Positions 2,004-33,252 are shown, counted from the first letter of the stretch. The stretch is DNA of 44,383 nt from Planctomycetota bacterium (GCA_020847415.1 JADLBZ010000036.1:1-44383), one strand, 5' to 3'. Notes: generated by a model from the letters alone, not told the origin. Numbers and translations are program-made.

Positions 2004-3158
2004 TTATCCTGCCAAGGCCCGGGCGATGACAATGCGCTGCACCTCGCTGGTGCCCTCGTAGATCTGGGTGATGCGCGCGTCACGGAAGAAGCGCTCGACG
2101 TCGTATTCCTTACTGTAGCCGTTGCCACCAAAGATCTGCACGGCGTCCTTGGCGGCCTTGTTGCAGGCTTCTGACGCGAACAGCTTGGCCATGGCCGCCT
2201 CCTTGACGCAGGAGATGCCGTTGTCGCGGTTCCAGGCGGCGCGGTGCACCAGCAGTCGCGAGGCGTCAATGCGCGTGGCGTTGTCGGCCAGCATCCACTG
2301 CACAGCCTGGAAGTTGCCGATGGGCTGCCCGAACTGCTCGCGCTTCTTTGAGTACTCGAGGGCCTCTTCCACGCAAGCGCGGCCGATGCCCACGGCCTGG
2401 GCGGCAATGCCGATGCGGCCGCCGTCCAGGGTGTCTAGGGCGATGGTGAAGCCCTTGCCCTCGCCGGCCAGCAGGTTGACAGCGGGCACGCGGCAATCCT
2501 CCAGCAGCACTTCGCAGGTGGCGCTGCCGCGGATGCCCATTTTCTTCTCCTTCTTGCCGATCTTCACGCCCTTGCGGTCGGCCTCGACCAGGAAGGCGGT
2601 GATGCCCTTGGTCTTGTGCTCCTTGCTGGTGCGGGCCATGACCACGAACGCGTCGGCGTATTCCGCGGAGGTAATCCACAACTTGGCGCCGTTGAGCACG
2701 TAGTCGCTGCCGTCCTTGAGGGCTTCGCAGGCCTGGGCGCCGGCATCTGAGCCCGCGCCGGCCTCCGACAGGCAGTAGGCACCCATCCACTCGCCGGCGG
2801 CCATCTTGGGCAAAAAGCGCTGCTTCTGCTCGTCGTTGCCCCACTTGGTGAGCAGGCTGGAGAACAGGCTCATGTGCACGGAGAGCGTGACGCCGGTACT
2901 GGCACAGACGCGGTTGATTTCTTCCAGCACCACGCTGGCGGCCTGGTTGGCCATCTTGTTGTCGTAGAAGCCTGCGCCGCCGAACTTCTCGGGGATGGTC
3001 AGGGCGGTCAGGCCCAGTTCGCCCATGCGCGCAAAGATGCGCCGGTCGAATTTCTCCTCGTGATCCATCTTGCGGGCCACAGGCCGCACCTCGCCCTCGG
3101 CGAATTCGCGGGCGGTTTTCTGAAGCAGGGACAGTTCCTCGTTCAGGGTGAAGTCCAT
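2004..3158 (-). CDS. Acyl-CoA dehydrogenase (short/butyryl-chain-like)
   Basis: The ORF 2004-3443 contains MDFTLNEELSLLQKTAREFAEGEV... from an internal ATG at 3158, with GGAGA 5 nt upstream. Motifs YCLSEAGAGSDAG and GGNGYSKEYDVERFFRDARITQIYEGTSEVQR. The upstream 95 codons are Arg/Cys/Pro-rich junk. Confidence 0.9.
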   Translation of the reverse strand: MDFTLNEELSLLQKTAREFAEGEVRPVARKMDHEEKFDRRIFARMGELGLTALTIPEKFGGAGFYDNKMANQAASVVLEEINRVCASTGVTLSVHMSLFSSLLTKWGNDEQKQRFLPKMAAGEWMGAYCLSEAGAGSDAGAQACEALKDGSDYVLNGAKLWITSAEYADAFVVMARTSKEHKTKGITAFLVEADRKGVKIGKKEKKMGIRGSATCEVLLEDCRVPAVNLLAGEGKGFTIALDTLDGGRIGIAAQAVGIGRACVEEALEYSKKREQFGQPIGNFQAVQWMLADNATRIDASRLLVHRAAWNRDNGISCVKEAAMAKLFASEACNKAAKDAVQIFGGNGYSKEYDVERFFRDARITQIYEGTSEVQRIVIARALAG

Positions 3159-3183
3159 GGCAATCTCCGTGTTTAAGGGGTTT

Positions 3184-5376
3184 CTATCCGTTACGGCGGG
3201 CGGGTTCAACGGCCCGCGACGCCAGGGCCAGGGCAATGGCCAGCACCGCGGCAGCCGCAAGGAACGAGCCCAGCAGCACGCCGCCCCCGGACGCGTCCGG
3301 CCGCAGCAGCGACTTGCCGGCGGTGGCGCGGCGCAGCAAGTACTGGCGCAACTCGCGGGCCGACGGCCCGGCCGGGCCATAGGCCCGTTGCAGGTCGGCA
3401 GCCAACGCCAGTTGCCAGCGCGTCGTGACAGGCTCGTCCGCACCCTCCAGCAAGGCGCCCACCGACCGGCCCTGCAACGAGGCCGCTACCGTGCCCAGCA
3501 GCTCGCGCAGCGGGGCCGGCCGGCCCGCCTCGTGCTCAGCCAGGGCTTCCTCCAGGCGCACGCCCGAGAGGCCGTCGGCCAGCAGCAACTGGCGCTCCAG
3601 CCGTTGCAGCTCGGCGTCGTCCGGCCAGAGGGCCAGCCCAGCCGCCAACAGGTCCCGGGCGCGGTCGCGGGCGACGACGCCGGGCGGCTTGTCGCCCTCC
3701 AGCCCGGCACGGATCGCGGCGGTCAGCGTTTCGCGGTCCTGCAGGGTCCGGCCGGATGCTGCAGCGCTGAAGGCCTCGGCGCGCAAGCGGGCGCGGCCCT
3801 GGGCATCCAGCGTGGAGAGGTCTTGCGGGGCTTGCGCCCACAAGGCCGCCGGCAGCAGCGCCAACAGTGCCGCAGCGGCGCGGGCAGGGGCTCGAATTGC
3901 CTCCGGAGGCAGCAGCGAGCCCACCCAGGCGGCGCCAAAGGCCAGTGCCAGGGTGGCCAGCACAACGGCGTGCGAACGATTGGCCAGCGCCACGCCCAGC
4001 ACACCCGCCAGCAGGGCCGGCCGTACCACCCGGAACGTGAAGAACATGTACAGGCGCTCGACCCACGGCAACCGCGAGCCGAACGCAGCCGAGGCCAGCC
4101 GCAGTCCCGCCCCGCTGCGCCGCGCCAGGGTGATGCGCAGCACGGCAATCAGCGCGGGCAGCACTGTCAGCAGAGGCAGCCAGGGCATCTCCCCCCCCAG
4201 CACCCACTGCAGGCCTACGCCGCCCGCCGCCAGTAAGGCCGCCACGTAGCCGGCCAGGGCAGGCCCGGTCCCCGGGCGCGGCGGCAGGAAGCGCCGCGCC
4301 ACCAGCAGCCCGGCGGCGGCAAAGCTGCAGCCCACCAGCACCAGGAACTGCCAGCCCAGGGCCACTTGTTGCGGCTGGGGACGCCAGGCGGGGTCCCAGC
4401 CGGGGAACAAGTCCTGCCCCAGGGCAGGCACCAGCTCAAGAACCAGCAACTGGGCCGAGGCGTGCTCGGGCCCGGGCACAATGCCCTGCCGGAAGCAGAG
4501 GCCGCACAGCAGCAAGAGGCCGGCAATGCCCCCGAGGGCCAGCAGCAGGCCCACGGCAGCCACCAGGGTGCGAGCCTCCGGCCCCACGGCGGCCCGTTGC
4601 GGCAGGGCGCGGCCGGCAGCTACCAGCACGCCGGTGTGCGCACCCAGGGACAGCAGGGCGGTCGCCACAGCGTCGCCCCAGAAGGCAACAGTCAACGGCG
4701 CTTCCCAGCGCGGCGCCGCCACGGCGGCGGCCAGCGGACCCGCGCCGGGCAGCACGTAGCCCACAAACACCCCCAGCACCAGCAGCAGCGCCACCATCGG
4801 CAGCAGCCAGCGCCCCAGCCAGGTCAGCCCCGCCAGCCGTTGCCGCCGCGCCAGCAACCATAGCAGGCCGGTCAGCAGGGCGGCGCAAGGCAGCCCTGCC
4901 CACAACAGCCACGCGCCCGTGCCGTGCCAGGACGACGATGCCGCAGAGAGCTCCAGTTGCTGGTAGGCCAGGGCGGGCGGGCCATCCAGCAGTGAGCGCG
5001 CCACCCAGGCGCCTGCGCGGGCGGCGGTGTACAGCAGGACGGCAGCCAGCGCGACGCGCACCAGGTTCTGCAGGCCGTGCACGGCCTCGCGGCCCGGAGA
5101 CTGGTGATCAAGCTGGCCGGTGGCGAGTTCCAGGCGCACCAAGGCCCCGCCCAGCACATTCAGCACCAGCAGCAGCGCGGGCAAGAACAGCGCCCCGTGC
5201 TGCAGCAGGGCCTGCGTCACCAGGGCCGGCGCACCCATCAGCGCCAGCACAGCCACGGTGGCGCCCAGAAAGGCGCCCCGCGAGTGCCAGCGGGTGTGCA
5301 GGTACTCGGTGGCCATGGCCGAGATTAGAGCAGTTTCGCCGCCGGCCTGCAGCCCGGGCTGTTGTTGCGCCCACAT
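3184..5376 (-). CDS. Polytopic membrane protein of unknown function with a soluble Ala/Leu/Arg-rich C-terminal region and a final TM helix
   Basis: 730 aa, with many hydrophobic helices over the first ~500 aa. The N-terminus (TRWHSRGAFLGATVAVLA...LVRLELATGQ) weakly resembles the start of sodium:neurotransmitter symporter (SNF) family proteins. The last ~230 aa are helical-repeat-like and end in LLGSFLAAAAVLAIALALA. Start uncertain (ATG 5376 or ATG 5316). Confidence 0.6.
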   Translation of the reverse strand: MWAQQQPGLQAGGETALISAMATEYLHTRWHSRGAFLGATVAVLALMGAPALVTQALLQHGALFLPALLLVLNVLGGALVRLELATGQLDHQSPGREAVHGLQNLVRVALAAVLLYTAARAGAWVARSLLDGPPALAYQQLELSAASSSWHGTGAWLLWAGLPCAALLTGLLWLLARRQRLAGLTWLGRWLLPMVALLLVLGVFVGYVLPGAGPLAAAVAAPRWEAPLTVAFWGDAVATALLSLGAHTGVLVAAGRALPQRAAVGPEARTLVAAVGLLLALGGIAGLLLLCGLCFRQGIVPGPEHASAQLLVLELVPALGQDLFPGWDPAWRPQPQQVALGWQFLVLVGCSFAAAGLLVARRFLPPRPGTGPALAGYVAALLAAGGVGLQWVLGGEMPWLPLLTVLPALIAVLRITLARRSGAGLRLASAAFGSRLPWVERLYMFFTFRVVRPALLAGVLGVALANRSHAVVLATLALAFGAAWVGSLLPPEAIRAPARAAAALLALLPAALWAQAPQDLSTLDAQGRARLRAEAFSAAASGRTLQDRETLTAAIRAGLEGDKPPGVVARDRARDLLAAGLALWPDDAELQRLERQLLLADGLSGVRLEEALAEHEAGRPAPLRELLGTVAASLQGRSVGALLEGADEPVTTRWQLALAADLQRAYGPAGPSARELRQYLLRRATAGKSLLRPDASGGGVLLGSFLAAAAVLAIALALASRAVEPARRNG

Positions 5377-8707: not shown

Positions 8708-8884
8708 GAGTGCTCCTGCGGCAGAAACTCTGGCAATGGTGCGTAAAGGCTGCATGAAGAGGCCGGCAACCGGCCATTAAATCGGCGTCCTGCATGGAAC
8801 CCGCAAGTCCAACCGGCATGAAGCGCCAGGTTGCCGGCGAATCGGACTGCCCCGGCGCGCGGCGCTTACTATCATCCTAAAGCC

Positions 8885-9886
<1,002 letters not shown>

Positions 9887-10020: not shown

Positions 10021-11235
10021 CTACAGCATCTCCAGCAACTCCCGGGCGCGGCGTTCATCGTCGGGTTTCAAGCCCAGCTTCAGTGCCGTGTTGTAGGCCG
10101 CGCGCGCCTTGGCGCTCTCGCCCAGGGCGTGCAGGCACTGGCCCAGGGCGAGCTGCACGGCGGCGTCGCCGGGGGCAAGCCCAGCCACCCGCTCGTACAG
10201 CTTCACCGCGTGCTCTCGCAGGTGGCCCTCGTGGGTGCAGGCCAGACTGCCGCCGCGCACCTGCAAGCCGGCCGCTTCCTTCCACAGGTTGGCGGCGCGG
10301 CTGGCGATGGCGGCATCAGCCGGGTCCAGTCCCGAGGCCTCTTCCCACAGTGCGGCCGCTGCCGCTTTGTCCGTGGCGGCTCCAGCGGACGCAGCCAGCT
10401 CGTCCTTTCGTGTGCGGCGGGTTTCTGCCGCCTTACGCAGATCGGCCCGTTCCCGCGCACTTTGCGCCGCGTACTCGGTACTCACAAAGGTCTGCTCCCA
10501 GGCGGCCAGCCGGAACAGCACTTCGGCCAGGGTCAGCGTGCCGTCCTTCAGCGCAGCATGGACCGACGCCAACTCGGCGCGGGCTTCCTTCTCACGGGCC
10601 TTGGTCAGCTTCTCCAGGCGCTTGGCGGTCACCAACAGGTCCCGCATCGCGCGAAACTCCGCATCCCACAGGGCGGCCACCTGCAGCGGCTCGCCGTCGG
10701 GCAGGTTCTCACGCAGGCGCACGTAGGTCTCCAGGTCCGGGCGTTCTTCGGCGCTGCGCTTGTGCAGCACGGTCAGCACGCGGTTGGCCAGATCGGGATC
10801 TTTGCGGCTGTAGAGCCAGGCGGCGAAAGCGACAAGTTCAGCCGCCCGGGGTTCGCCTTCTACGGGGAGCGTTCCCAGCATGTAGCGCGGCAGCCAGTCA
10901 TCCCAGCCAAAGGTCGTGTTGTCCGGCGCCGGCGTGCGAATGGGCTTGCCCTGGGCGTCAAGAGCGCCGGTGTCCAGCAGCTTGCGCGTGGTCAGGCCGC
11001 GCTCGCTGGCAGCACGAATCTCGTGGGGCTCGGCGCCTGCCGCGCCGGGAAACCAGGTGCGAGGGAATTCCCCCGCAGCACAGCGGCCGGCAAGCCATTG
11101 CTGCATGGCGGCGTGCCAGTCACGCGCGATGGTGGCCTCGGACCCGGCATCCGGAAAGTGCCGCGCCAGCAGGGCCGGCATGGCGGCTGGCAGGCTGCTC
11201 GCCAGGAGCACAGCCAGCATACAGACGCGGGCCAT
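10021..11235 (-). CDS. Secreted protein, paralogue 1 of an unassigned family (C-terminal TPR-like helices)
   Basis: 404 aa from the ATG at 11235 (the ORF-track start 11244 is a GTG). Signal peptide MARVCMLAVLLASSLPAAMPALLA. Shares AELVAFAAWLYSRKDPDLANRVLTVLHKR, LLVTAK and C-terminal LALGQCLHALGESAKARAAYNTAL with the next gene. Confidence 0.75.
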   Translation of the reverse strand: MARVCMLAVLLASSLPAAMPALLARHFPDAGSEATIARDWHAAMQQWLAGRCAAGEFPRTWFPGAAGAEPHEIRAASERGLTTRKLLDTGALDAQGKPIRTPAPDNTTFGWDDWLPRYMLGTLPVEGEPRAAELVAFAAWLYSRKDPDLANRVLTVLHKRSAEERPDLETYVRLRENLPDGEPLQVAALWDAEFRAMRDLLVTAKRLEKLTKAREKEARAELASVHAALKDGTLTLAEVLFRLAAWEQTFVSTEYAAQSARERADLRKAAETRRTRKDELAASAGAATDKAAAAALWEEASGLDPADAAIASRAANLWKEAAGLQVRGGSLACTHEGHLREHAVKLYERVAGLAPGDAAVQLALGQCLHALGESAKARAAYNTALKLGLKPDDERRARELLEML

Positions 11236-11271
11236 GGCATGCACCAGCAGGGGGAGGTCAGGGGTGCTGCA

Positions 11272-11317
11272 GGGGCGCGTGGGCGCCCCCGTGTGTCCGG
11301 CGCAGCGGTGTGCGCCG
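11272..11317 (-). other. Two GC-rich hairpins in the 95-bp gap between paralogues 2 and 1
   Basis: cggcgca-gcggtg-tgcgccg (11298-11317) and ggggcgc-gtgg-gcgcccc (11272-11289). The second has the same outer 7-bp arms as the REP palindrome at 38359-39348. No T tract follows. Confidence 0.35.
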
Positions 11318-11330
11318 CAAATCTTGCGCG

Positions 11331-12677
11331 TCAGTTCTTCTTGCCGCGGGCCTGGTCCTTCTGCTCCATGTTGCGCATCAAGGCCTGCGCCATGGAGCCG
11401 TTACCCTTGTTGCCTTCAATGGCCACCACGCGTTCGTAGTAGGGCTTGGCGTTCTTGCTGTTCTCGAGGGCCTGCCAGCAGCGGCCCAGAGCCAGCAGGA
11501 AGCTGGTGTTCATGGGCAGCGCCGCCGAGATGATCTCGTAATGAGGGATGGCCTTCTTGATGCCTTCGGAGCGGTCACAGCCGTTGCCGTGGTCGGCGGG
11601 GTGGCCGTACAAGTACCAGGCGTTGGCGCACTCGCCGCGCAGGCTCAGGTCGCAGGGGTCCACCTTCAGCAGCAGCTCCAGTTGCTCGGCCTTCGCCTTC
11701 ATGCCCGGCACGTCCTTGTCGTCCTTGGCCAGGGCCTTGGCCTTGGGGACGTTGTCTTTCAGCATGGCCAGGTCGTCGGTGATGGAGTCCGAGACGGCGG
11801 TCAACAGGTCGGCGTTCTTGGAGTTCTTCAGGAACTCCGAGTTGCCGTAGCCCGCCTTGTACTGCTTGATCTCCCACTCCAGCAGCACCAGCATCATGCT
11901 GGGCGACTTTGCGCGGGGCGCCTTGCCCTTGTAGTCACCGCGCGCCGCCACCAGCTCCTTGAATCGCTTCTCGGCGGCCTTCTCGCGGCTGGCCAGACGG
12001 GCGGCTTTGTCCTTGGCGGTGACCAGGATGGTGCGCTCGACCTGGTACTCGGGGTCCCACTCGGCCCAGTCTTCCAGGGTGGCGCCCTTCTCCCAGCCCA
12101 GCTTCTCGATCAGGTAGGCCTCGATCAGCGGGGCAAGGTCCTTGTTGCGGTGGTGCGCCACCGTCAGCACGCGGTTGCCCAGGTCGTTCTCTTTCTCGCC
12201 CAGCAGCCAAGTACCGAACGCGACCAGGTCGGCATCGTTGTCGTTGGACTCGATGGGGTAGGTCTCAACCAGGTACTTGCCCGGCCACTGTTTCCACGAC
12301 AGCCAGTGCCCCTGGCCCGCCACCTTGTAGATGGGGCGGCCGTTGCCGTCGTAGCCGTCCTTGGCCATGTAATAGGCGCTGAACTGCTGGCGGTTGGCGT
12401 CGCGGATCTCGAACTTCGAAGCTTCCTTGGAGGGACGAAACTCGCCGTCCAGCAGCAGGTGCGTCTGCGGGAAGGTGTTCTTGCTGGTCAGCTTGGAAAC
12501 CCAGTCCGGCAGCTTCTCCCACCAGTCACCGGCAACCTTGGACTCCTTGGCGCCCTTGTGGGTCTTGTCAAAAAGCGGCTGGCCGGCCTGGGCTGCCAGG
12601 GTGCCGCAGAAACCGGCCGCCAGCAGCGCGGCAGCAAGGCCTTTCCACATCGTGAACTGCACAAGGGTGCTCCGCAT
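11331..12677 (-). CDS. Secreted protein, paralogue 2 of the unassigned family
   Basis: 448 aa from the ATG at 12677 (AAGGAGG 6 nt upstream; the ORF-track ATG at 12683 abuts the SD). Signal peptide ...WKGLAAALLAAGFCGTLAAQA. Motifs ADLVAFGTWLLGEKENDLGNRVLTVAHHR, ILVTAK, a coiled-coil-like middle, and C-terminal LALGRCWQALENSKNAKPYYERV. Confidence 0.8.
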   Translation of the reverse strand: MRSTLVQFTMWKGLAAALLAAGFCGTLAAQAGQPLFDKTHKGAKESKVAGDWWEKLPDWVSKLTSKNTFPQTHLLLDGEFRPSKEASKFEIRDANRQQFSAYYMAKDGYDGNGRPIYKVAGQGHWLSWKQWPGKYLVETYPIESNDNDADLVAFGTWLLGEKENDLGNRVLTVAHHRNKDLAPLIEAYLIEKLGWEKGATLEDWAEWDPEYQVERTILVTAKDKAARLASREKAAEKRFKELVAARGDYKGKAPRAKSPSMMLVLLEWEIKQYKAGYGNSEFLKNSKNADLLTAVSDSITDDLAMLKDNVPKAKALAKDDKDVPGMKAKAEQLELLLKVDPCDLSLRGECANAWYLYGHPADHGNGCDRSEGIKKAIPHYEIISAALPMNTSFLLALGRCWQALENSKNAKPYYERVVAIEGNKGNGSMAQALMRNMEQKDQARGKKN

Positions 12678-12729
12678 GTCCATCCTCCTTGCGTCAGGCC
12701 CGTTGCAGGGTTCCTCTACCCGGCATCGG

Positions 12730-14010
12730 CTACTTCATGTCCTTCAAACGCGCCTCGGCGTAGTCCCGGTTCTGCTTTTCCGTGTCGCTGAGCTCTTTCT
12801 TGCCCTCGGTACGGCGCAGCACTTCATCAAAGTGCTGCTTGGCCCGGGCCTTGTCACCGCCCGCCATGAAATTCAGGCCCGCGTGGTTGTGCAGCCCCAG
12901 TTGCGCCGTGTAGATGTCCAGCACAGCCTCCCAGTATACGGCGGCCTGCAGGGCCAGGTCCTTCTTTTCACAACTGGTGCCGTTGTTGGTGATGCCCGCC
13001 CCCTTGCTGCAGGCATCGGCTGCCTTGGCCAGCAGGTCCGGGTTCTGCGGATCGCAGCGCACCAGCGGCACATAGGCGCGGGCGCAACCCTCGGCATCGC
13101 CGTCAATGGCCATGCGGTCGGCCTTGTTGCGGGCGTTCTCGATGTGCTCAAGGTCGGCCTTGATCGCGGCCGTCAACTCTTCGAGGGTCTTCTTGGTCTT
13201 GCTGTTGCCCGCCGTGGCTGTGCCGGCAAAGGCTTTCTCGAAGCGCCCCACGCGGACCAGAAGCACATCCAGCCGCACCTTGGGCGTGCCCTTGCGCTGG
13301 CCGGGCTTGCTCTTTACGTCTTCGCCCTGCTTCAGTTGCAGGTCCTTGAGGGCGTCCTTGGCCTGTTTGTCCAGGGTCTTCAGGCGCTCGGTGGCGGCTT
13401 CAGTGGTGAGCAGCAGGAAGCCCTCTTCGCCGGATTCCAGGTTGGTGGTGGAGGCCTCAGTGAGGCCGCCTTCAGGCAGCGTCCAGCCGTGTTTGGCGAC
13501 CAACCACTCGTCCACTTCCTTCTTGAGCGAGGTTTGCAGCTTGGCCAGGCCGGCCAGCAGGGCGTTGGCGGTCCAGAGCTCTTTCTTGTTCGCGAGCCAG
13601 ACGCACACGCCCACAACCTCCGCGGGTGTGCGATTGGGCGCCTTGAACCACTCCGCCACACAGGCCGGCGGAATGTCATTGAACTTGAGTTTCACGACGG
13701 GCTCGTGGGGCGACCAGGAATACTCCAGCCGGTCGGCGTACCAGCCGCTGCGGGCCAGGGTGGCCCAGGTCAGCTCGTTGGACTTGACCTCTGACAACTC
13801 CACGAAGATGGGTTTCTTGTTGTAGTCCATCCGCAGGCGCGGGCGGGTGGTGTCTTTGAGCGCCGCCTGCAGGAAAGCGCCGATGCCGGCCTCGAAATCC
13901 TTGGCCACGTCGGCCTCGGCCTTGCCGGGGAAGTGCGTCTCCACCAGCCCAGCCAGCAGGCTGGGAGCCAGCAACGAACACAGAAGGGCGCAAAGCGCGG
14001 GCCTGAGCAT
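12730..14010 (-). CDS. Secreted protein, divergent paralogue 3 of the unassigned family
   Basis: 426 aa from the ATG at 14010 (GGGAGA 6 nt upstream). Signal peptide MLRPALCALLCSLLAPSLLAG. Same layout as paralogues 1 and 2: N-domain with AEVVGVCVWLANKKELWTANALL, a charged coiled-coil middle, a Cys-containing segment (CDPQNP...ACSKG...SCEKKD), then TPR-like helices. Confidence 0.75.
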   Translation of the reverse strand: MLRPALCALLCSLLAPSLLAGLVETHFPGKAEADVAKDFEAGIGAFLQAALKDTTRPRLRMDYNKKPIFVELSEVKSNELTWATLARSGWYADRLEYSWSPHEPVVKLKFNDIPPACVAEWFKAPNRTPAEVVGVCVWLANKKELWTANALLAGLAKLQTSLKKEVDEWLVAKHGWTLPEGGLTEASTTNLESGEEGFLLLTTEAATERLKTLDKQAKDALKDLQLKQGEDVKSKPGQRKGTPKVRLDVLLVRVGRFEKAFAGTATAGNSKTKKTLEELTAAIKADLEHIENARNKADRMAIDGDAEGCARAYVPLVRCDPQNPDLLAKAADACSKGAGITNNGTSCEKKDLALQAAVYWEAVLDIYTAQLGLHNHAGLNFMAGGDKARAKQHFDEVLRRTEGKKELSDTEKQNRDYAEARLKDMK

Positions 14011-14116: not shown

Positions 14117-14151
14117 ACGACAGGGCGGGCGTAACCCGCCCGCCCTGTCGT
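14117..14151 (-). terminator. Rho-independent terminator after the 14335-14742 gene
   Basis: 15-bp stem acgacagggcgggcg / cgcccgccctgtcgt with loop taacc. On the minus strand it is followed by a T-rich TTTCGTT. Confidence 0.65.
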
Positions 14152-14334: not shown

Positions 14335-14742
14335 CTACGGATGGTCCGTGGCCGTCGTGTCGGCATCTGCCGAGTTTTCATCTGCCTCCCACGGCGCGCC
14401 GCTGCCTGGCGCGGTGTACACGTCCGTTGGCGCGGTCGTGTCGGCAAAATCGTCCTGCTCCCAGGGGTTGCCGCCGGCTGGCACCACCAGGGCTTCCATG
14501 GCCTGGGCCAGGATCTGGAACGGGCTGACCTCGCCGGCGAGCTGGGCCTCGGTGTAGCCGCCCAGAATCGGCTGGCTGGCCACGATGACCGTCTCAGTAA
14601 CGGTTGGGCCGGCATCGGCAGTGGTGGCCTCGGGGGAGTCGTTGGGCGGCTGTCCCTCAGGCGCGGGGTCTTCAAGGGCAAAGACGACTGCGGCTGGCGC
14701 CAAGGCGGCGGCCAGCAAGGCCAGAAGTGTGCTGCGAATCAT
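14335..14742 (-). CDS. Small secreted acidic Pro/Thr/Ala-rich protein
   Basis: 135 aa. Signal peptide MIRSTLLALLAAALAPAAVVFA. The mature part is strongly acidic (EDPAPEGQPPNDSPEATTADAG...PWEADENSADADTTATDHP). GGGAG 6 nt upstream of the ATG. Codon third positions are GC-rich like neighbouring genes. Confidence 0.6.
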   Translation of the reverse strand: MIRSTLLALLAAALAPAAVVFALEDPAPEGQPPNDSPEATTADAGPTVTETVIVASQPILGGYTEAQLAGEVSPFQILAQAMEALVVPAGGNPWEQDDFADTTAPTDVYTAPGSGAPWEADENSADADTTATDHP

Positions 14743-15235: not shown

Positions 15236-18200
15236 ATGCGCAATTCACGGTTGCTGCTGGTGCTGTTTGTCCTGTTGCTGGCGCTTGGCCTGGGGGGCGG
15301 TGCGTTCCTGCTGTTCGGTGACGGCTCGGGCGATGCCCGCAGTCGCAGCAACGTGGTAGCTTCCGGCAACCCCTGTGCCGGCGGCTCGGGCGCGGTGGAC
15401 CCGCTGGCAGCCGCGAACACCGGTACCCAGGGCAATGCAACCGGCCCTGTCAACTCGGCGACCCACACCGGCCCCGCCGCCAACGAGACCCACCAGCCGG
15501 CAAACACCGTGGCGAAGCCCGCGACGGTGCCGCCGACACCCGGCCCTGAGACCACGCCGCCAGTTGAGGCAAACGGCGACTGGGAAAAGCAGATTTCCAA
15601 AGTAACCATCCGCGGCACGGTGCTTTTCAAGGCCGACAACCGCCCAGCCCCTGGCGCGACCGTCACCGCGGAAGCCCAGGGAAGCGAGGATCTTCAGCCG
15701 GGCGGCGGAGGCGGAAGGATTCGCAGCAGGGGCCGCCCATCCAGCCACAAATACGGCGGCGACAAGCCGGCCACCGAGATCTCCGGCAGCACCACCACCA
15801 ACGGCGCGGGCGAGTACGTGCTGGAGCTGAGCATTACCAGCTATGTCGCCAAGGCCACGCGCGAGGGCGCCAGGACGCCCCCGATCAAACGCAGGCGAAG
15901 CGGCGACGACCGTGGCAGCAGTGACGACGCCACACCCGACCCCGAAAGCGAAGCCCCCGGCAGCGACCGCAGCGACAAGGACGCCCCGGAATTTGACGGC
16001 GGGCTGGGCTTCGACGGCGAATCCCTGGTGGTGGTCGCCCGCCTGGCGGGCTACGCCCCCGGCCGCTCCGGCGCCATCTGGCCCGCCCCCGGCTCCGAGC
16101 ACGTCGCCAACCTGATGCTGGCTGTGCCCGCCGCTGTCTCCGGTCGCACCGTGGACAGCCTGACCCGCGCCGGCATCGCGGGCGCCCAGGTGTCGTTCAA
16201 CTCGATGGATGACGGCCGCGACGGCTGGACTGCCCCGCGCACGGTGACGACGGACCAGGACGGCTACTTTGCCCTGAATGACCTGCCCGCCGGCACTTAC
16301 TGGTGGTCCATCTCGGCCCAGGGCTACAGCGACTACAACGCCATGAACGGCGAGGGCCGGCTGGATGTCTCCAACGGTGGCGAGCGTAACCTGGGCGAAC
16401 TGCCCCTGATGCCCGAGGGCAGGCTGACCGGCGTGGTCGTGGACGCCCGCACCGGCAAGCCGGTCCGCGACGCCACGATTACCCTGGAGGCAGTCAACGG
16501 CGGGTGGGGCCGCTGGACCCGCGGCGTATCCCGCACCGGCGAGGACGGCCGCTTCACGGCCGAGGGCTTGCAGGCCGGCGTGAACACCCTGAAGGTGCAG
16601 GCTGCCGGCTATGCACGCTTTGAACTGCCTGACGTGAAGACCGAGCCGGGCAAGACCGTGGATGTCGGAACCCTGCGCCTCGATGTAGGGCAGACCCTGT
16701 TGGGTATGGTGCTGAACGCAAACGGCGAGGGCGTGGCGGGTGCCAGCGTCACGCTGGCTGAGCCGCCGGAAGGTGCCTTCAACTTTGTGGACTCCGGCAA
16801 CACGGTGGCCTCGGTGACCACCCAGAGCAACGGCAGCTTCGAGTTGCCCGCCATGTCTGAGGGCAAGTGGCGCCTGATCGTGCGGGCCGAGGGCTACGCC
16901 GACACCCGGCACGACTTCGAGTTCTCCGGCGACACCCGCCCGCTTGAAGTGCGCGTTGTCCGCGGCGGTGCTATCCGCGGCCGTGTGCTGGACGCCGCCG
17001 GCGCGCCGGTGCCCAACATGCAGGTTACGGCTACCGCCCACTCCAGTTCGGCCTATGCCATCATCAAGATCCAGCCCGATGCACAGTTTGGCGGCTTTGG
17101 CGGTTCAACAGCCACCACCGATGCCGAGGGCCGCTTTGTCATTCCCAAGTTGCGCGCCGACGACTACCTGCTGGCGGGCGGCAACGAGGGTACCGGCACG
17201 GTGCGCAAAGACGACATCTCCGTTGAAGACGAGCGCGAAACGGATATCGGCGACCTGCGCCTGGCCGGCAAGGGTGCGCTGCGCGTGTTCGTGACCGAGA
17301 ACGGCGAACCCGTTCAAGGCCTGAAGGTGACCCTGGCGCGCAGCATGAACACCTGGATGAGCGAGAACAAGCTGCAGGGCGTCACCGACGGTACCGGTGC
17401 CACGCTGATTGAGAACGTGCCCGCGGCCGATTACTTCATCCGCACCGACCGCGACAAGGACACCTGGGACACCGAAGTGATGAAAAAGCGCCGTGCCGTG
17501 GTGCGCACCGGCGAGACCGGAGAATTCCGCCTCGAGCTGCGTCCTCGCGACGGCGTGCTGCTGCACGGCCGCCTGACCCTGGGCGGCAAGGCGCTGTTCA
17601 AGGATGTCTACCTGATCGGCACGGGCAACCGCGCCACCGTGATGAAGAACGCCAAGGTGGCCGAGGGCGGCTTCTATGAGTTTGCCGGCCTGGAGACCGG
17701 CGTCTACGAACTCTATGCCCGCGAGTCCGACACCACCGTCGCCGCCAAGCTGCTGGTCAACGCCGAGCAACAAGGCGACCTGGACATCACCCGCGACTTT
17801 GCCGCCATGACCCTGGCCGGCGAGGTCAGCACGCCCCAGAACAGCGCCGCAGAGCGCGCCGCCGTGGACATCACCGTGCGCGCTGCCGATGCCAACGACC
17901 AGATGGGCGGGTGGCTCAGCGGCCGCGCCAAGTGCGACGCCCAGGGGCGGTACCGCATCGAGAACGTGCCCGCCGGGGCTTATCGCGTCACGGCTGTCCT
18001 GGCCGGCGTGGGCAGCACCACCGTGGAGGCCGACGTCAGTGCTGCCAGCCGGCTGGACGCCAACATGGTGCTGGCGGCCAACAGCGGTTCCCTGACCGTG
18101 ACCATCAAGAAGCTGAACGGGCAGTCATCCTCGGGCGTGGGCTTCGGCATGGTACAGTTGCGCGATGCCAAGGGCGCCGTGGTGGCGCTTTCCGACCAGC

Positions 18201-18661
18201 AACAGGGCATGCTGATGCTCTCCGAGGGCACCAGCACCACACTGGAAACCCTGGCCCCCGGCACCTACACGGTGACTGTGCAGGGCAGCGGCTTCCTGCA
18301 GGTCGAGTTGCCGGGCGTGACCATTGAAGTGGGCAAGAAGGCGGCCGTGGACGTGACCCTGACGGCAGGGGCCGAGCTGCACGTGACCTTCATCAACCCC
18401 GAGCTGACACAGGCCCTGCTGGACACCGCGCAGGTGAAGTACTTCACGGCGGCGGGCGTTGAGGTGCCGCGTCAGTCCAACATGTTTGATGCCTGGGGCC
18501 AGCAGGCTCCGCCCGCGGTGCCCACGGTGACGGCCAAGTACCTCAGCACCGATGTCTCCGAGGTGCGCATCAAGGTGCCCGGCTACGCCGAGCTGGTGGT
18601 GCCCGTTCAGCCGCAACCGGGCAAGAAAACCGAACGCCAGGAGTCGCTGGTGGCCGGGTAG
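15236..18661 (+). CDS. Membrane-anchored giant protein with ~10 tandem carboxypeptidase-regulatory-like (CarboxypepD_reg / Cna-B-like) beta-sandwich repeats
   Basis: 1141 aa. N-terminal TM MRNSRLLLVLFVLLLALGLGGGAFLLF, then a Pro/Thr/Ala low-complexity and charged linker. Repeating units follow of the form GRVLDAAGAPVPNMQVTA...DAEGRFVIPKLRADDY, GVVVDARTGKPVRDATITLEA...EDGRFTAEGLQAGVNTLKVQAAGY, and similar. GGGAG 5 nt upstream of the ATG. Confidence 0.8.
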   Translation: MRNSRLLLVLFVLLLALGLGGGAFLLFGDGSGDARSRSNVVASGNPCAGGSGAVDPLAAANTGTQGNATGPVNSATHTGPAANETHQPANTVAKPATVPPTPGPETTPPVEANGDWEKQISKVTIRGTVLFKADNRPAPGATVTAEAQGSEDLQPGGGGGRIRSRGRPSSHKYGGDKPATEISGSTTTNGAGEYVLELSITSYVAKATREGARTPPIKRRRSGDDRGSSDDATPDPESEAPGSDRSDKDAPEFDGGLGFDGESLVVVARLAGYAPGRSGAIWPAPGSEHVANLMLAVPAAVSGRTVDSLTRAGIAGAQVSFNSMDDGRDGWTAPRTVTTDQDGYFALNDLPAGTYWWSISAQGYSDYNAMNGEGRLDVSNGGERNLGELPLMPEGRLTGVVVDARTGKPVRDATITLEAVNGGWGRWTRGVSRTGEDGRFTAEGLQAGVNTLKVQAAGYARFELPDVKTEPGKTVDVGTLRLDVGQTLLGMVLNANGEGVAGASVTLAEPPEGAFNFVDSGNTVASVTTQSNGSFELPAMSEGKWRLIVRAEGYADTRHDFEFSGDTRPLEVRVVRGGAIRGRVLDAAGAPVPNMQVTATAHSSSAYAIIKIQPDAQFGGFGGSTATTDAEGRFVIPKLRADDYLLAGGNEGTGTVRKDDISVEDERETDIGDLRLAGKGALRVFVTENGEPVQGLKVTLARSMNTWMSENKLQGVTDGTGATLIENVPAADYFIRTDRDKDTWDTEVMKKRRAVVRTGETGEFRLELRPRDGVLLHGRLTLGGKALFKDVYLIGTGNRATVMKNAKVAEGGFYEFAGLETGVYELYARESDTTVAAKLLVNAEQQGDLDITRDFAAMTLAGEVSTPQNSAAERAAVDITVRAADANDQMGGWLSGRAKCDAQGRYRIENVPAGAYRVTAVLAGVGSTTVEADVSAASRLDANMVLAANSGSLTVTIKKLNGQSSSGVGFGMVQLRDAKGAVVALSDQQQGMLMLSEGTSTTLETLAPGTYTVTVQGSGFLQVELPGVTIEVGKKAAVDVTLTAGAELHVTFINPELTQALLDTAQVKYFTAAGVEVPRQSNMFDAWGQQAPPAVPTVTAKYLSTDVSEVRIKVPGYAELVVPVQPQPGKKTERQESLVAG

Positions 18662-18754: not shown

Positions 18755-18830
18755 TGGTGGACCTGAGGGGATTCGAACCCCTGACCTATGCATTGCGAAC
18801 GCATCGCTCTACCAACTGAGCTACAGGCCC
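18755..18830 (-). tRNA. tRNA-Ala (anticodon CGC), CCA encoded
   Basis: The reverse complement GGGCCTGTAGCTCAGTTGGTAGAGCGATGCGTTCGCAATGCATAGGTCAGGGGTTCGAATCCCCTCAGGTCCACCA folds as a cloverleaf: acceptor 7 bp with the G3:U70 Ala identity pair, D arm GCTC/GAGC, anticodon loop TTCGCAA, T arm AGGGG/CCCCT with TTCGAAT, discriminator A73. Confidence 0.95.
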
Positions 18831-20011: not shown

Positions 20012-22738
20012 ATGATCGTTTCGCTGCGCGGCAAGCGCGTGGCCGTGTCCAGCCGCAGGCTGGCACTTGCGGCCGCCATGGTACTGATGGGACTTGGAGT
20101 TACGTTCGCGGCGCTCACCCACGAGGGCGGTCCCGCCGGGTTCTTTGACATGAAGCGCACGACGCACAAGCTGGCGGTTGCGGTGGGCCTGGAAAGCGAC
20201 ACCCCGGTGCTGCTGGCAGAGGCCGAGAAAGAAGGCCCCCGTCGCGCCCGCGGCCCTTTCCGCCAGGGTGACGACCCCGGCGAGAAGCACTGGCACGACG
20301 AGCTGAAGCGGACCACCGAGAACAAGGACGGCAAAGTTGTCGTCAGCAACGTGGAAGGCGCCGGCGCCTGGTCAAGCTGGTACTACTTTGCGCCCACCAT
20401 CCTGCTGGGCCTGATCGCCGCGGCGGCGGCGCTGGTTGTGGCCCTCAAGTTCTTCAAGGACGTCAAGGCCGCCGAGCCCGGCACGCCCAAAATGGTCGAG
20501 ATCATGGACGCCGTGGCCGAGGGCGCCATGGCCTACTTGAAGGCCCAGCGCAAGCGCGTGCTGCCGGTGCTGGGCGCCGCATCCGTGATCATCCTCGCCA
20601 TCAACCTGATCGGCATGCCCTGGTGGCTGGCCATCTTTGTGCCCCTCGGCCTGTTCACGGGCGGCTTCTCCAGCTTCATCACCGGCTGGTACGGCATGAA
20701 GACCGCCACCATGGCCAACGCCCGCACAGCCTACGCCTGCAAGCAGGGCGGCCTGAACGCCGGCCTGCAGGTGGCGTTCAAGGCGGGCTCGGTGATGGGC
20801 CTGTCGGTGGTGGGCATCGGCATCGGGTTCATCACGGTGTGGCTGCTCATCCTGGGCGGCATCTTGGACCCCATCGCGGGCAGCATCACCCTGAATGACA
20901 TCGCCAACGCCATGATCACCTTCGGCCTGGGCGCCTCGCTGGTGGCGCTGTTCGCCCGCGTGGGCGGCGGCATCTACACCAAGGCGGCTGACGTGGGCGC
21001 CGACCTGGTGGGCAAGGTGGAAGCCGGCATCCCGGAAGACGATCCCCGCAACCCGGCCACCATCGCCGACAACGTGGGCGACAACGTGGGCGACGTGGCG
21101 GGCATGGGTGCGGACCTGTACGAGTCGTACCTGGGCTCAGTGCTGGCCTGTATCGCCCTGGCGTGGTCGGCCAGTCAGGCGCTGGGCCACAACCCCTGGG
21201 GCTACGTGGCTGCCCCCATGTGGATTGCCGCGGGCGGCATCATCCTGTCCATCATCGGCACCAAGTTTGTGAAGACCAAGGAAGGCGCCAACCTGGGCGA
21301 GCTGCTGAAGGCCCTCAAGAAGGGCGTCAACGTGGCCTCCATCGCGGTGGTTCCGCTTTCGCTGGTGGTCTGCCTGCTGTGCTTTGGCGTGGCGATGGGC
21401 CTTACGATGTGGTTGGCCTGCTGCATTGGCCTGGCATCGGGCCTCGTCATCGCCTGGGGCTCCGAGAAGTACACCAGCTACGACGACAAGCCCACGCAGG
21501 ACGTGGCCAAGCAGGCCCTTACCGGCCCGGCAACCGTCATCATCGGCGGCCTGGCAGTGGGCATGATGAGCACCTGGATTCCGATCATCACCGTGGCGGT
21601 GGCCACGTTCCTGGCGTTTGGCCTGGGCGGCGGGTTCCTCGGCGGTGGGTTCTCTGCCGGTGTCTACGCCGTGTCGCTGGCGGCGGTCGGCATGCTCAGC
21701 ACCCTGGGCATTACCCTGGCCACAGACGCCTACGGTCCCATCGCGGACAACGCCGGCGGCAACGCTGAGATGGCGGGCCTGCCCCCCGAAGTGCGCGAGA
21801 AGACCGACGCCCTGGACAGCCTTGGCAACACCACGGCTGCCATCGGCAAGGGCTTTGCCATCGGCTCGGCGGCACTGACCGCCCTGGGCCTGATTGCAGC
21901 CTACAGCGATTCTCTGAGCAGCCTCGCCACTTACATGGATGTCAGCCCGCGCTTCAGCTTGGGCGTGATTACGCCCGAGGTCATCATCGGCCTGTTTGTC
22001 GGAGCGTTGCTGGTGTTTGTGTTCTGCGCCCTCACCATGAAGGCCGTGGGCGATGCCGCCAAGGAAATGGTGGAGGAAGTCCGGCGCCAGTTCCGCGAGA
22101 TTGTGGGCCTGCGCGAGGGCAAGGAAGGCGTGAAGCCCGAGCACGGCAAGTGCGTCGAGATCAGCACCCAGGCGGCCATCCGCCGCATGATGCTGCCCGC
22201 CATCATCGCGGTTGTGGGTCCCATTGCGACCGGCGTGTTCTTTGGCGCGGGCGCGGTGTTTGGCTTGCTGGCCGGCGGTTTGGCCACGGGTTTTGCCATG
22301 GCGGTGATGATGGCCAACACCGGCGGTAGCTGGGACAACGCCAAGAAGTTCATCGAGAAGGGCGGCCTGGCTGAGCTGATGATTGCCGACGGCAAGTACA
22401 AGCCCGAGGTTGAGGACCCGCAGCTTGAGGCCGCCAAGGCCACCCAGGGCGGTCCTGACGACGCCCCGGCTGCTGCTGCCCCTGCCCCTGCCGCCGAAGC
22501 ACCCAAGAAGAAGAAGTACGCCCGCTACATGAAGGGCAGCAACGAGCACAAGGCGGCCGTGGTGGGCGACACCGTGGGCGACCCCTTCAAGGACACCAGC
22601 GGCCCGTCGCTGAACATCCTGATCAAGCTGATGAGCATGGTGGCGGTGGCTACTGCTGCCCTGACCCTGCTTGTCAACGATGGCGGCGGCCTGCTCTCGC
22701 AGGCGTTCAGGTTCATCTTCACCACCACCGCTAAGTAA
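20012..22738 (+). CDS. hppA: Membrane-bound (H+ or Na+) translocating pyrophosphatase, K+-dependent-type signature
   Basis: 908 aa. Motifs [85 protein letters not shown] (Ala, not Lys, at the K+-dependence position), DNAKKFIE and [34 protein letters not shown] 7 nt upstream of the ATG. Confidence 0.95.
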
Positions 22739-30870: not shown

Positions 30871-33138
30871 CTACCACTGCAGCGGCTTGCCTGCCAGCCC
30901 GTCAATAGCCGCGATGCGCGTCTCGGCCCGGCCCACCGCCTTCATGTGCAGATTCCACACCGGCAGAAACAGGTTGGTCACCTTCTTGGGTGTGGCCTTG
31001 TAGCGCTGCGAGAAGGCCTGCTTCACCACTTCGTCGCTCTTGCGGTTCTGCAGGTCAACCAGGTTCAGGCGCAGGTTGCCGGGCAGGGCACGCTCCAGGG
31101 TGGTCACGTTGTCGAAGTCGCGCACGCGGCTGGCATAGTCGTCGGGGCGGTCTTCCAGGCGCACACCGCCCTCCGGCGTGTAGACGGCGATCTTCAGGTT
31201 CACGGGGTGCAGGTAGACATGGCCCTGCAGGTGATCTGCGGCGCGGAAGTCAAACTGGAACACCCGCTGCATCAGCGTGCGGGTCACGCTTTCCCGGAAC
31301 TCCAGCTGCAGCACCAGGCGGTACTCCATCTCGACGTGGTCCAGCTCTTCATCGTCGCCAAAGATGCCCAACGTGGCCTTGCCCCGCAGGTCGCGCCCCA
31401 AGCGCTCGGCATCGTGGCTGGTCAGGCGGGCTGACAACACCTGCACGGGCTCAGTCAGCCCCAGGTCGGGCCGCAGGCCGGCGGCGCGGCTGAAGTAGCG
31501 CTGCACGCGGCCCTCCTTGAACTGCGCCGCCAGCCCGGCAGCGGCCAGCTTGCGCAGGGTGCTGCGGGCGGCACCCTCGCCCACGTCGGCATAGGCCGCG
31601 TACTCGGCGGCGGTCATGCTGGGCTTGCGGGCCAGCTTGCTGTCGGCCTCTTTCAGGGCTTCGGCTGCGGACGTATCGGGCGCCGCCGGCTCTTCCTCTT
31701 CTTCGTCCTCATCTTCCTCTGCCAGGGGCGCCGCCTTGGCGGTGCGGCCCGCTTTTGCGGGCGCGGGCTCTTCCGCCTCGTCGGCAGGAAGCTCCTCGTC
31801 CTCGGGCTTCTGGGCCTCCAGATGCTCCTCCAGTTCGTTGAAGCGCTCGCGTACCGGGCCGTCCACCTGTTGCTCGATGGCGTCCTCGTTCAGCGTCTCG
31901 TGGCGGGTGTACAGCCAGCGGCTCTGCAGGCGCACCGTGTTGCTGAAGTTGTCGGGCGAGATCAGGATGAACTGGCCGGGCTTGAGCGCCGGCAACTCTT
32001 CCATGATCTGGTCCACGTGCACCGGGTCCAGGGCCTTCACGGTGGGCTGCACCTTGGCCATGTCCTGGCGGGTGGTCAGGCGGCCGATGGCCCAGGTGCC
32101 GAACTGCGCCATGGCCTTGTAGTCCACGTCGGCGGGGTTCTGCGTCGCCATCAGGCAGCAAATGCCGTACTTGCGGGCCTGCTTGAACAGCAGGCTGAGG
32201 CCGGGCTTGCTGGCCGGCTTGCGCACCGGCGGGATAAACGGGGCAACTTCGTCAATGTAGAACAGGGCCTGGGGGGCATCGCTGGGGTTCTCCAGCATCC
32301 AGGCATAAAGCCGCTCCACCAGCGCCGCGACAAAGAACTCCTTGTCTTCCTGGGCGTTCAGGGTGTTCAGGTAAACGACGCTGAGCCGCGCCTTGCCCGG
32401 CACCGCGGCGGAGTTCTCGCCCCGGCCCAGCAGCAGGTCAATGTCCAGGGCCAGCCCCTCGTGAAACAGCAGCCGCCGGGCGCCCACGTCCAAGCGCGCC
32501 AGCTTCTGGCAGGCATGCTCGATCTTCTTGACGTCCAGATAGCGCCCGTACTCCTCCTTGGTGGCGCCATCCAGCTTCAGCAGCCAGTCCGTGAACTGCC
32601 GCAGGTTGCGCGGCATGCGCCCGTTCTTCAGCAGGCCGGCCAGGGCCTTGTCAAAGACCGCCACCAGGCCGGCGCCGTCATCGCTTTCGAGGTCATAGCC
32701 CAGCAACGAGGCCAGCATGCTTGCCATGCCGCTGATGGCCACCACGCGCTCGCGGGCGGGCAGGGCGCTGACATCCATGCTCATGGGGTCCGCCGAGAGC
32801 GCCACGCCCTTGCGCGAGGCCGGCGAGAACAAGACCACGTCGGCCTTCTCGGCAAAGGCCGCCGCCGTGGCGGGGTCAATGCCCTTCTGCTTCAAGTACT
32901 CGGGGTCCTTGGCGTGCAGGGCCAGGCTGCACAGGTCGCCCTGGGGATCAATGCAGATGGCGGGCAGGCCGCTGCGAACAAACTCCTCCACCACTGCCTT
33001 GCAGATAACGGTCTTGCCCGAGCCCGAGCTGCCCAATGCCATCATGTGCCGCAGCAGCGATTTGGGGGCCAGGGACACCGGCGCGGGTGGCTGTGCCAGG
33101 CGGTCGGTGCCCAGTTGGAAGCTTTCGGTCTGCGGCAT
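30871..33138 (-). CDS. HerA/YjgR-like (DUF87/DUF853-type) P-loop NTPase fused to an acidic linker, a wHTH-like segment and an unassigned C-terminal domain
   Basis: 755 aa from the ATG at 33138 (GGGAGA upstream). Walker A MALGSSGSGKTVICKAVVEEF...ICIDPQGDL, Walker B ALFYIDEVAPFIP, and CLMATQNPADVDYKAMAQFGTWAIGRL. Then EDEELPADEAEE...EEDEDEEEEEP, then MTAAEYAAYADVGEGAARSTLRKLAAAGL, then about 220 aa with no motif I recognise. Confidence 0.75.
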   Translation of the reverse strand: MPQTESFQLGTDRLAQPPAPVSLAPKSLLRHMMALGSSGSGKTVICKAVVEEFVRSGLPAICIDPQGDLCSLALHAKDPEYLKQKGIDPATAAAFAEKADVVLFSPASRKGVALSADPMSMDVSALPARERVVAISGMASMLASLLGYDLESDDGAGLVAVFDKALAGLLKNGRMPRNLRQFTDWLLKLDGATKEEYGRYLDVKKIEHACQKLARLDVGARRLLFHEGLALDIDLLLGRGENSAAVPGKARLSVVYLNTLNAQEDKEFFVAALVERLYAWMLENPSDAPQALFYIDEVAPFIPPVRKPASKPGLSLLFKQARKYGICCLMATQNPADVDYKAMAQFGTWAIGRLTTRQDMAKVQPTVKALDPVHVDQIMEELPALKPGQFILISPDNFSNTVRLQSRWLYTRHETLNEDAIEQQVDGPVRERFNELEEHLEAQKPEDEELPADEAEEPAPAKAGRTAKAAPLAEEDEDEEEEEPAAPDTSAAEALKEADSKLARKPSMTAAEYAAYADVGEGAARSTLRKLAAAGLAAQFKEGRVQRYFSRAAGLRPDLGLTEPVQVLSARLTSHDAERLGRDLRGKATLGIFGDDEELDHVEMEYRLVLQLEFRESVTRTLMQRVFQFDFRAADHLQGHVYLHPVNLKIAVYTPEGGVRLEDRPDDYASRVRDFDNVTTLERALPGNLRLNLVDLQNRKSDEVVKQAFSQRYKATPKKVTNLFLPVWNLHMKAVGRAETRIAAIDGLAGKPLQW

Positions 33139-33252
33139 GAAGTCTCCCTGCACCTGAACTGAGGCCAGAAAGCTGGCAATGGAAGCGCGCCCGCGCAATG
33201 GCCGAGTTTGCCGGGGCGATTCCGGCGGATCCATCTTTCACCACGGCGCGGC

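Follow-up and report, generated by a model that had tools for sequence, protein, structure and literature searches.

A Planctomycetota-restricted family of predicted exported proteins, encoded in a fixed three-gene order and joining a family-specific N-terminal domain to C-terminal tetratricopeptide repeats

The tetratricopeptide repeat (TPR) is a protein–protein interaction module. In CpoB/YbgF, a periplasmic protein associated with the Tol-Pal system, a signal peptide and an N-terminal trimeric coiled coil precede a C-terminal TPR, and this single-copy, non-enzymatic protein serves as an envelope coordinator. The Hcp proteins of Helicobacter are secreted paralogues built of Sel1-like repeats, i.e., disulfide-bridged helical repeats, and the SycD/LcrH class II chaperones of type III secretion systems (T3SS) are small proteins of the cytoplasm that lack signal peptides. 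In Planctomycetota, a large share of the genes in a genome carry no annotation beyond 'hypothetical protein', and the cell envelope of this phylum is unusual and poorly understood. Here, we report on three consecutive genes, referred to as C, B, and A, in a 44,383-nucleotide stretch of a Planctomycetota bacterium (GCA_020847415.1 JADLBZ010000036.1:1-44383; the whole stretch that was analysed is called the window). Their products belong to a small family of exported, non-enzymatic proteins of about 400–450 aa that is restricted to Planctomycetota and falls into three orthologous groups encoded in a fixed order. The genes lie head to tail, giving the transcription direction C, then B, then A:

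12730 to 14010, minus strand: gene C, 426 aa, first of the trio; C-type orthogroup; exported, with N-domain, helical repeats, and a degenerate C-terminal TPR
11331 to 12677, minus strand: gene B, 448 aa, second of the trio; B-type orthogroup
10021 to 11235, minus strand: gene A, 404 aa, third of the trio; A-type orthogroup

An original prediction made from the sequence alone had described three same-strand open reading frames (ORFs) of 404, 448, and 426 aa separated by 52 and 95 bp. All three were found where it placed them, and the spacer lengths are exact (C-B, 12678-12729; B-A, 11236-11330). Public gene calls on the same contig include a 426-aa protein, P0001, identical to C and a 404-aa protein, P0002, identical to A. 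Gene B starts with an ATG at 12677, 6 nt after AAGGAGG, and gene C with an ATG at 14010 preceded by a Shine–Dalgarno-like GGGAGA; the start codons chosen in the prediction are sensible.

BLASTP comparison revealed that A, B, and C are true paralogues, far beyond chance, in agreement with the claim that they are diverged members of one exported family. A and B align with E = 2e-35 and 28% identity over 376 columns (A residues 33-381), B and C with E = 7e-11, and A and C with E = 2e-5 (A residues 16-386), pairwise identity among the trio being 20–28%. These alignments cover the N-terminal domain as well as the charged middle of the proteins and extend beyond low-complexity sequence. The predicted motif block (A/D)(E/D)LVAF..WL...LANRVLTV is present, its residues W140, N151, and L154 (A numbering) being nearly invariant in 33 representatives, i.e., A, B, C, and 30 relatives.

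Modelling of A with AlphaFold2 (AF2) from an alignment of the 33 sequences gave a predicted local distance difference test (pLDDT) score of 94.2 and a predicted template modelling (pTM) score of 0.79. In this model the signal peptide is followed by a helix (residues 33-53), a four-stranded beta meander (59-109), helices carrying the conserved motif (116-176), a beta-hairpin (184-203), a long helix (204-231), and a series of helical hairpins (236-403) interrupted by a small beta-hairpin (325-332). The mature protein can thus be described as two parts:

10528 to 11157, minus strand: N-terminal family-specific domain of A, residues 27-236; helix, SH3/Sm-like beta meander, three helices, beta-hairpin, and long helix
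10024 to 10527, minus strand: C-terminal alpha-solenoid of A, residues 237-404; helical hairpins with two to three canonical TPR motifs, beta-hairpin 325-332, and Cys333/Cys367

The middle of the proteins had been called coiled-coil-like. It is helical indeed, but in the model the long helix 204-231 is followed by hairpins that lead into the TPR, so that this segment appears as part of an alpha-solenoid ending in canonical TPRs and not as a free coiled coil.

The proposed C-terminal TPR-like pair was recovered by several routes. Within Pfam clan CL0020, A exceeds the gathering score of TPR_19 (PF14559) with 26.1 bits against a cut-off of 25, and B and C individually stay below every TPR gathering score. 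A profile of the three sequences matched consensus-TPR structures with E = 9e-17, restricted to profile positions ~345-410, and in the AF2 model helices 336-353, 358-370, 374-387, and 391-403 of A stack as antiparallel pairs in the manner of a right-handed TPR solenoid. With the full model of A as query, Foldseek returned TPR proteins only, at target-normalised TM-scores of 0.7–0.78 for generic TPR structures (CTPR3 1na0, 0.78 with a root-mean-square deviation of 2.4 Å; the TPR domain of SGT 2vyi, 0.72) and a query-normalised TM-score of ~0.25. The last ~70–130 residues of the trio proteins are therefore like those of generic bacterial TPR proteins (TPR_19 PF14559, TPR_16 PF13432), consisting of canonical TPR helix pairs. 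Unlike in such proteins, the TPR makes up less than one third of each trio protein, and the N-terminal ~210 residues and the fixed gene array have no counterpart among them. A weak similarity of the TPR part to the SycD/LcrH family (TIGR02552) was detected for A (23.0 bits) and B (17.6 bits) and none for C; these scores fall far below the family cut-off of 104.8 bits, and no T3SS genes occur near the trio. Searches return the C-terminal TPR alone, as expected from the earlier statement that no catalytic or named domain could be recognised, and the nearly invariant columns of the 33 representatives (W, N, L, A, D-P, and P) show no residue pattern like that of a catalytic site. Membership in a defence system was also considered and rejected, the PADLOC anti-phage models leaving A, B, and C, and also a neighbouring 135-aa protein, without a match at E<=0.1.

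Because the whole-protein Foldseek search is dominated by TPR matches, the N-domain was modelled and searched separately. AF2 modelling of A residues 27-236 alone gave a pLDDT of 95.2 and a pTM of 0.87. Its three helices carry W140, N151, and L154, and equivalent N-domain regions exist in B and C. Foldseek found no match at E<=0.001 for this domain (best E in PDB 0.047 and in BFVD 0.021, query-normalised TM-score <=0.25); the beta meander bears a weak local resemblance to SH3/Sm-like barrels such as Hfq, the myosin SH3-like domain, and KOW. No Pfam family was matched by more than 2 of the 33 N-domains (best E 0.016), and NCBIfam holds no family for the N-terminal ~210 residues. An N-domain profile searched against PDB gave one marginal match (E = 0.0033, 20 bits), in which the helix and hairpin part aligns with a winged-helix subunit of ESCRT-II; we regard it as no more than a weak hint about the module formed by the three helices and the hairpin. 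Judged by Pfam, NCBIfam, PDB, and BFVD, the N-domain and the three-paralogue array are undescribed, and a brief literature search on the family returned nothing relevant.

Each of the three proteins was said to begin with a signal peptide. With a heuristic combining Kyte–Doolittle (KD) hydropathy and charge, this holds for A, B, and C and for the 30 relatives alike (33/33): a basic n-region precedes a 12-residue hydrophobic core of mean KD above 2 and a small-residue cleavage motif, which stands directly before the conserved mature N-terminus. Among these 33 representatives, neither a lipobox nor a further transmembrane-like segment was found (maximum 19-residue hydropathy elsewhere below 1.4). 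For the window proteins, the following segments are predicted, with cleavage sites placed by eye:

11164 to 11235, minus strand: predicted Sec signal peptide of A, residues 1-24, MARVCMLAVLLASSLPAAMPALLA, followed by RH
12585 to 12677, minus strand: predicted Sec signal peptide of B, residues 1-31, ending in GTLAAQA and followed by GQ; site also guided by the alignment of N-termini
13951 to 14010, minus strand: predicted Sec signal peptide of C, residues 1-20, MLRPALCALLCSLLAPSLLA, followed by GL

In A, the core has a KD value of 2.50 with one basic residue ahead of it, and residues 1-20 are modelled at a pLDDT of 61–63. In the C-type orthologues, a conserved mature N-terminus, GL(V/I/L)E..FPGK.E, starts right after the signal peptide. 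The semi-conserved cysteines of the original prediction correspond to Cys333 and Cys367 in A numbering, which tend to occur together: both are present in 15 sequences, neither in 13, and one in 5 (Fisher p = 9e-5, uncorrected for phylogeny). All B-types have both, and most C-types lack the putative disulfide. Such co-occurrence in the alignment is the pattern that would be expected of a disulfide in an exported protein.

The resemblance to CpoB/YbgF is one of general plan, namely export, a helical N-part, and a short C-terminal TPR, and the only computed link is a TPR-only match to 6g5s with E = 0.45. The trio differs from it by an N-domain made of a beta meander and helices and by the presence of three paralogues, without significant sequence similarity. 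No tol-pal genes occur near the trio, whose neighbours are PhoR/PhoB/PhoU, a MoxR ATPase, and a CarboxypepD_reg protein. By analogy, the Hcp proteins are alike in being lineage-specific secreted paralogues with TPR-like hairpins and a Cys pair that links repeat elements, the co-varying pair of the trio being Cys333/Cys367. The trio family is unlike them in that it has no match to Sel1 (PF08238), a single putative disulfide, an extra N-domain, and a fixed gene order.

Word-indexed homology searches returned only self-matches and one to two relatives among the matches listed, and an exhaustive HMMER search of 1.84 billion representatives was needed to delimit the family. It yielded ~40 full-length representative clusters (380–480 aa) plus fragments, all other matches being large multi-TPR proteins that align at the TPR positions alone. 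The source annotations read 'hypothetical protein' or 'tetratricopeptide repeat protein', and the organism, where stated, is a Planctomycetota metagenome-assembled genome (MAG). Pattern scans of 185,579 species-representative genomes detected the family in 16 genomes, namely 15 Planctomycetota/Planctomycetaceae MAGs and one 'uncultured bacterium'; several of them bear names suggesting wastewater or activated-sludge surveys. The nearest Planctomycetota MAG homologues of window B are 55–58% identical to it. A phage or plasmid origin was examined as well and rejected, tblastn of B being blank in 50,697 phage and 72,556 plasmid records.

Clustering, group hidden Markov models (HMMs), and a neighbour-joining tree concordantly divide the family into three orthologous groups, to which the window genes are readily assigned: C reaches 579 bits with the C-type HMM but 147 and 136 bits with those of the B- and A-types, B reaches 674 bits with the B-type HMM, and A reaches 478 bits with the A-type HMM. 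The C split was recovered in 200 of 200 bootstraps and the A group in 198 of 200; monophyly of B was recovered in only 55 of 200, so that A is probably an offshoot of the B lineage. Sequences within a group diverge on average by 1.48 in A, 1.07 in C, and 0.78 in B; A, which also varies in copy number, is the fastest-evolving group and B the most conserved of the three. Three genes previously labelled as hypothetical or TPR proteins are thereby turned into a defined clade-restricted family with three orthogroups, a fixed order, and a confident structural model, and the family alignments could seed a new domain family for annotation. The TPR half is in itself ordinary, and lineage-specific hypothetical families are common in Planctomycetota.

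Selection was assessed by comparing each window gene with its orthologue in L001, a close relative of the window that comes from a Logan assembly and ends inside A, using the ratio of nonsynonymous to synonymous substitution rates (dN/dS):

B: dN/dS 0.10, 91% aa identity
C: dN/dS 0.12, 90% aa identity
A: dN/dS 0.26, 68% aa identity
135-aa neighbour: dN/dS 0.59, 50% aa identity

A, B, and C are therefore functional genes under purifying selection, with A the least constrained of the trio. The GC content of the region (64–68%) and the long overlapping ORFs on the opposite strand are what one would see if the trio consisted of spurious or decaying ORFs in GC-rich DNA, but this explanation is refuted by the presence of orthologues in more than 20 genomes, the dN/dS values of 0.10–0.26, the pLDDT of 94–95, and Shine–Dalgarno sequences at the right spacing.

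Every family ORF was typed in 36 loci, corresponding to 24 distinct loci besides the window; all those with a named source are Planctomycetota MAGs. The arrangements found were the following:

C-B-A: 16 distinct loci (A split into two ORFs in L018)
C-B: 6 distinct loci
B-A-A': 1 distinct locus (contig begins inside B)
solo B-like: 1 distinct locus (L020, the second locus of MAG SJ126)

The copies are thus almost always tandem elsewhere, 23 of the 24 other distinct loci being arrayed, and the order C-B-(A) is never permuted. C and B always co-occur in arrays, and A is present zero, one, or two times. The original prediction had proposed one locus made by duplication and since diverged; as a local event, this does not hold, each paralogue having its own orthologues in other genomes. 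These orthologues and the fixed C-B-(A) order indicate that the duplications predate the clade, and the trio is an old lineage-specific gene set rather than a recent local duplication.

In most relatives, the array sits in a longer syntenic block consisting of rpsA, C, B, (A), a FixO-like cytochrome c, a 4HBT thioesterase, an AMP-binding enzyme, a creatininase, and more genes. None of these flanking genes is present in the 44-kb window, yet C-B-A is intact there, flanked instead by PhoR/PhoB/PhoU, an orphan MoxR in convergent orientation, an acidic exported protein of 135 aa, and a 1141-aa CarboxypepD_reg repeat protein, of which L001 shares the 135-aa and CarboxypepD_reg genes. As the trio is whole although its usual flanking genes are absent, it is the unit that has been retained and not its surroundings.

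Two stretches beside the genes contain hairpins:

14123 to 14141, minus strand: terminator-like hairpin whose 8-bp stem has 7 GC pairs and is followed by TGTCGTTTTC; upstream of C, after the 135-aa gene
11236 to 11330, minus strand: B-A spacer; two GC-rich hairpins without a U-tract

Lying between the 135-aa gene and C, the hairpin at 14141-14123 is likely the 5′ boundary of the C-B-A transcription unit, from which it follows that the trio probably forms a transcription unit of its own. Over the whole set of terminator-like sites, six were found against 5.3 expected from shuffles, i.e., there is no enrichment. The two hairpins noted earlier in the B-A spacer do exist, but they are no stronger than those of shuffled GC-rich sequence: the minimum free energy of −41.5 kcal/mol (z = −1.73) was equalled by 12 of 200 shuffles, the structure is thus not significant, and the hairpins are probably not a terminator. 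No regulatory RNA was found in the gaps or the upstream region with Rfam, which over the whole window detected only a tRNA-Ala.

At a rough probability of 0.4, we favour a reading in which the trio products constitute a non-enzymatic, periplasmic heteromeric scaffold with C and B as its core and A as an accessory, because no array separates C from B or changes the gene order, the genes lie close together, and the unit has outlived its neighbourhood. Briefly, the C, B, and A genes would be transcribed together in their fixed order, and their products would assemble in the periplasm or cell envelope, C plus B forming the obligatory core and A being a later, B-derived, faster-evolving, and dispensable third subunit. 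The TPR/solenoid halves would make the protein–protein contacts, the conserved face of the N-domain with W140, N151, and L154 may bind a partner, and a Cys333-Cys367 disulfide may stabilise the solenoid outside the cytoplasm in A- and B-types. The family is an experimentally testable candidate for an envelope complex.

Several points weigh against such a scaffold. A physical C-B-A interaction is inference only, co-transcription is deduced solely from the short gaps and the upstream terminator-like hairpin, and the signal peptides and the disulfide rest on heuristics. Gene order within a narrow clade can be phylogenetic inertia, and most relatives keep the flanking genes, which makes synteny alone weak; the array has survived rearrangement only in the window and in L001, L021, L034, and L033 (the last for the downstream flank only). 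SJ126 carries its solo B-like copy in addition to an array, so a member can stand alone. The subunits show no complementary charge that would hint at a complex, and their pI (isoelectric point) ranges overlap.

A binding or adaptor role, as had been suggested from the sequence, is plausible for the trio proteins. They could then also be independent binding or adaptor proteins that share a scaffold and have separate ligands or partners in the periplasm or outside the cell, the tandem order being a footprint of duplication. The strong divergence of the paralogues (20–28% identity), the variable copy number and fast evolution of the A-type, and the solo B-like copy all fit this view, which is harder to reconcile with 23 arrays in which C and B are unseparated and the order is unchanged, and with a trio that remained together after losing its neighbourhood. 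We consider it possible, yet doubtful, and retain the C-B-A scaffold as the better account.

The usual neighbourhood of the array suggests yet another role. In 16 of the 24 other loci, the last paralogue is directly followed by a co-oriented FixO/Cytochrom_C gene, so that the trio proteins might be assembly or docking factors that hold or mature a membrane-anchored mono-haem c-type cytochrome (FixO/CcoO-like, ~250 aa). Such a gene is absent from the whole window and missing beside the array in L003, L012, L021, and L029 (4HBT directly after the array) and in L034, and the cytochrome belongs to a longer conserved synteny (rpsA to 4HBT, AMP-binding, and creatininase), from which its adjacency may simply be inherited; this role is accordingly judged improbable. 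A bolder extension of the scaffold reading combines both ideas. The N-domain would be a new fold combination, and a Planctomycetota-specific periplasmic C+B complex with an exchangeable A would help to organise a component of the envelope or of respiration, such as the FixO-like cytochrome c encoded beside it in most relatives. If real, this would represent a lineage-specific envelope machine without counterpart in model bacteria. We rate it as speculative and unlikely.

In the window, the stop codon of A is 135 bp from the end of a MoxR gene (AAA_3, 214 bits), and the original prediction had raised the question of whether copies always lie near such an ATPase. By analogy with MoxR-VWA/DUF58/BatA systems, the trio proteins could be clients or adaptors of this AAA+ enzyme, and L020 does have DUF58 and BatA genes 2.6–5 kb from its solo B-like copy. 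The association breaks down elsewhere: no MoxR homologue (E<=1e-3, or 1e-8 for L024-L036) was found in the 6–10 kb flanks of the other loci, L001, which ends inside A, being not assessable. In addition, the MoxR gene is convergent with the trio and not co-oriented, MoxR is cytoplasmic whereas the trio proteins have signal peptides, and no VWA, DUF58, or BatA domain was detected with Pfam and NCBIfam in A, B, C, or the 33 N-domains. This explanation is largely refuted and hardly credible.

Some of the other loci show features of their own. In L018 (1742-3333), the A-type is present as two overlapping ORF pieces (185 and 164 bits), reflecting either a frameshift pseudogene or an assembly error. 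The divergent solo B-like gene of L020 (6585-9332, JADLAK010000053.1) is preceded by an unrelated 444-aa exported protein with four internal repeats of ~110 aa and without a Pfam match; T2SSF and ferredoxin genes lie upstream, and the DUF58 and BatA genes are on the other strand. In L033 (10077-12523), an IS66-family transposase and a PRiA4_ORF3-like gene have been inserted directly behind the A-type, at the position of the FixO-like cytochrome c in relatives. Only some of the syntenic loci (L009, 14538-15166; L003; L022) carry a VapB/VapC (PIN) toxin–antitoxin pair, whose insertion separates the AMP-binding gene from that for creatininase.

The remaining features of the window, starting with those nearest the trio, are as follows:

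8831 to 9886, plus strand: orphan MoxR-type AAA+ ATPase (AAA_3 plus AAA_lid_2), convergent with A; no DUF58/BatA/VWA gene after it
14335 to 14742, minus strand: 135-aa acidic protein with a signal-peptide-like N-terminus; no Pfam or PADLOC match
15236 to 18661, plus strand: 1141-aa protein with at least six CarboxypepD_reg (prealbumin-like) repeats, divergent from the 135-aa gene; 72% identity in L001
5528 to 8755, minus strand: PhoR-like histidine kinase (HAMP-PAS-HisKA-HATPase), PhoB-like regulator, and PhoU, a phosphate-regulon control module just upstream of MoxR
3184 to 5376, minus strand: 730-aa Ala/Leu-rich ORF resembling a multi-pass membrane protein; no Pfam match
18755 to 18830, minus strand: tRNA-Ala(CGC), the sole RNA gene found in the window
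20012 to 22738, plus strand: H+-translocating pyrophosphatase, unusually long at 908 aa
33284 to 35266, plus strand: 660-aa Ser/Thr protein kinase fused to a WD40 beta-propeller

The 135-aa protein is shared only with L001, and its low identity and high dN/dS there show that it evolves very fast. The 3′ end of the 730-aa ORF overlaps the 5′ part of the longest acyl-CoA dehydrogenase ORF (2004-3443) by ~260 nt, and one of the two starts is probably too long. The kinase-WD40 gene is found near a HerA/DUF87-like ATPase (30871-33234, minus strand) and a flotillin/SPFH protein (36086-37660, plus strand).

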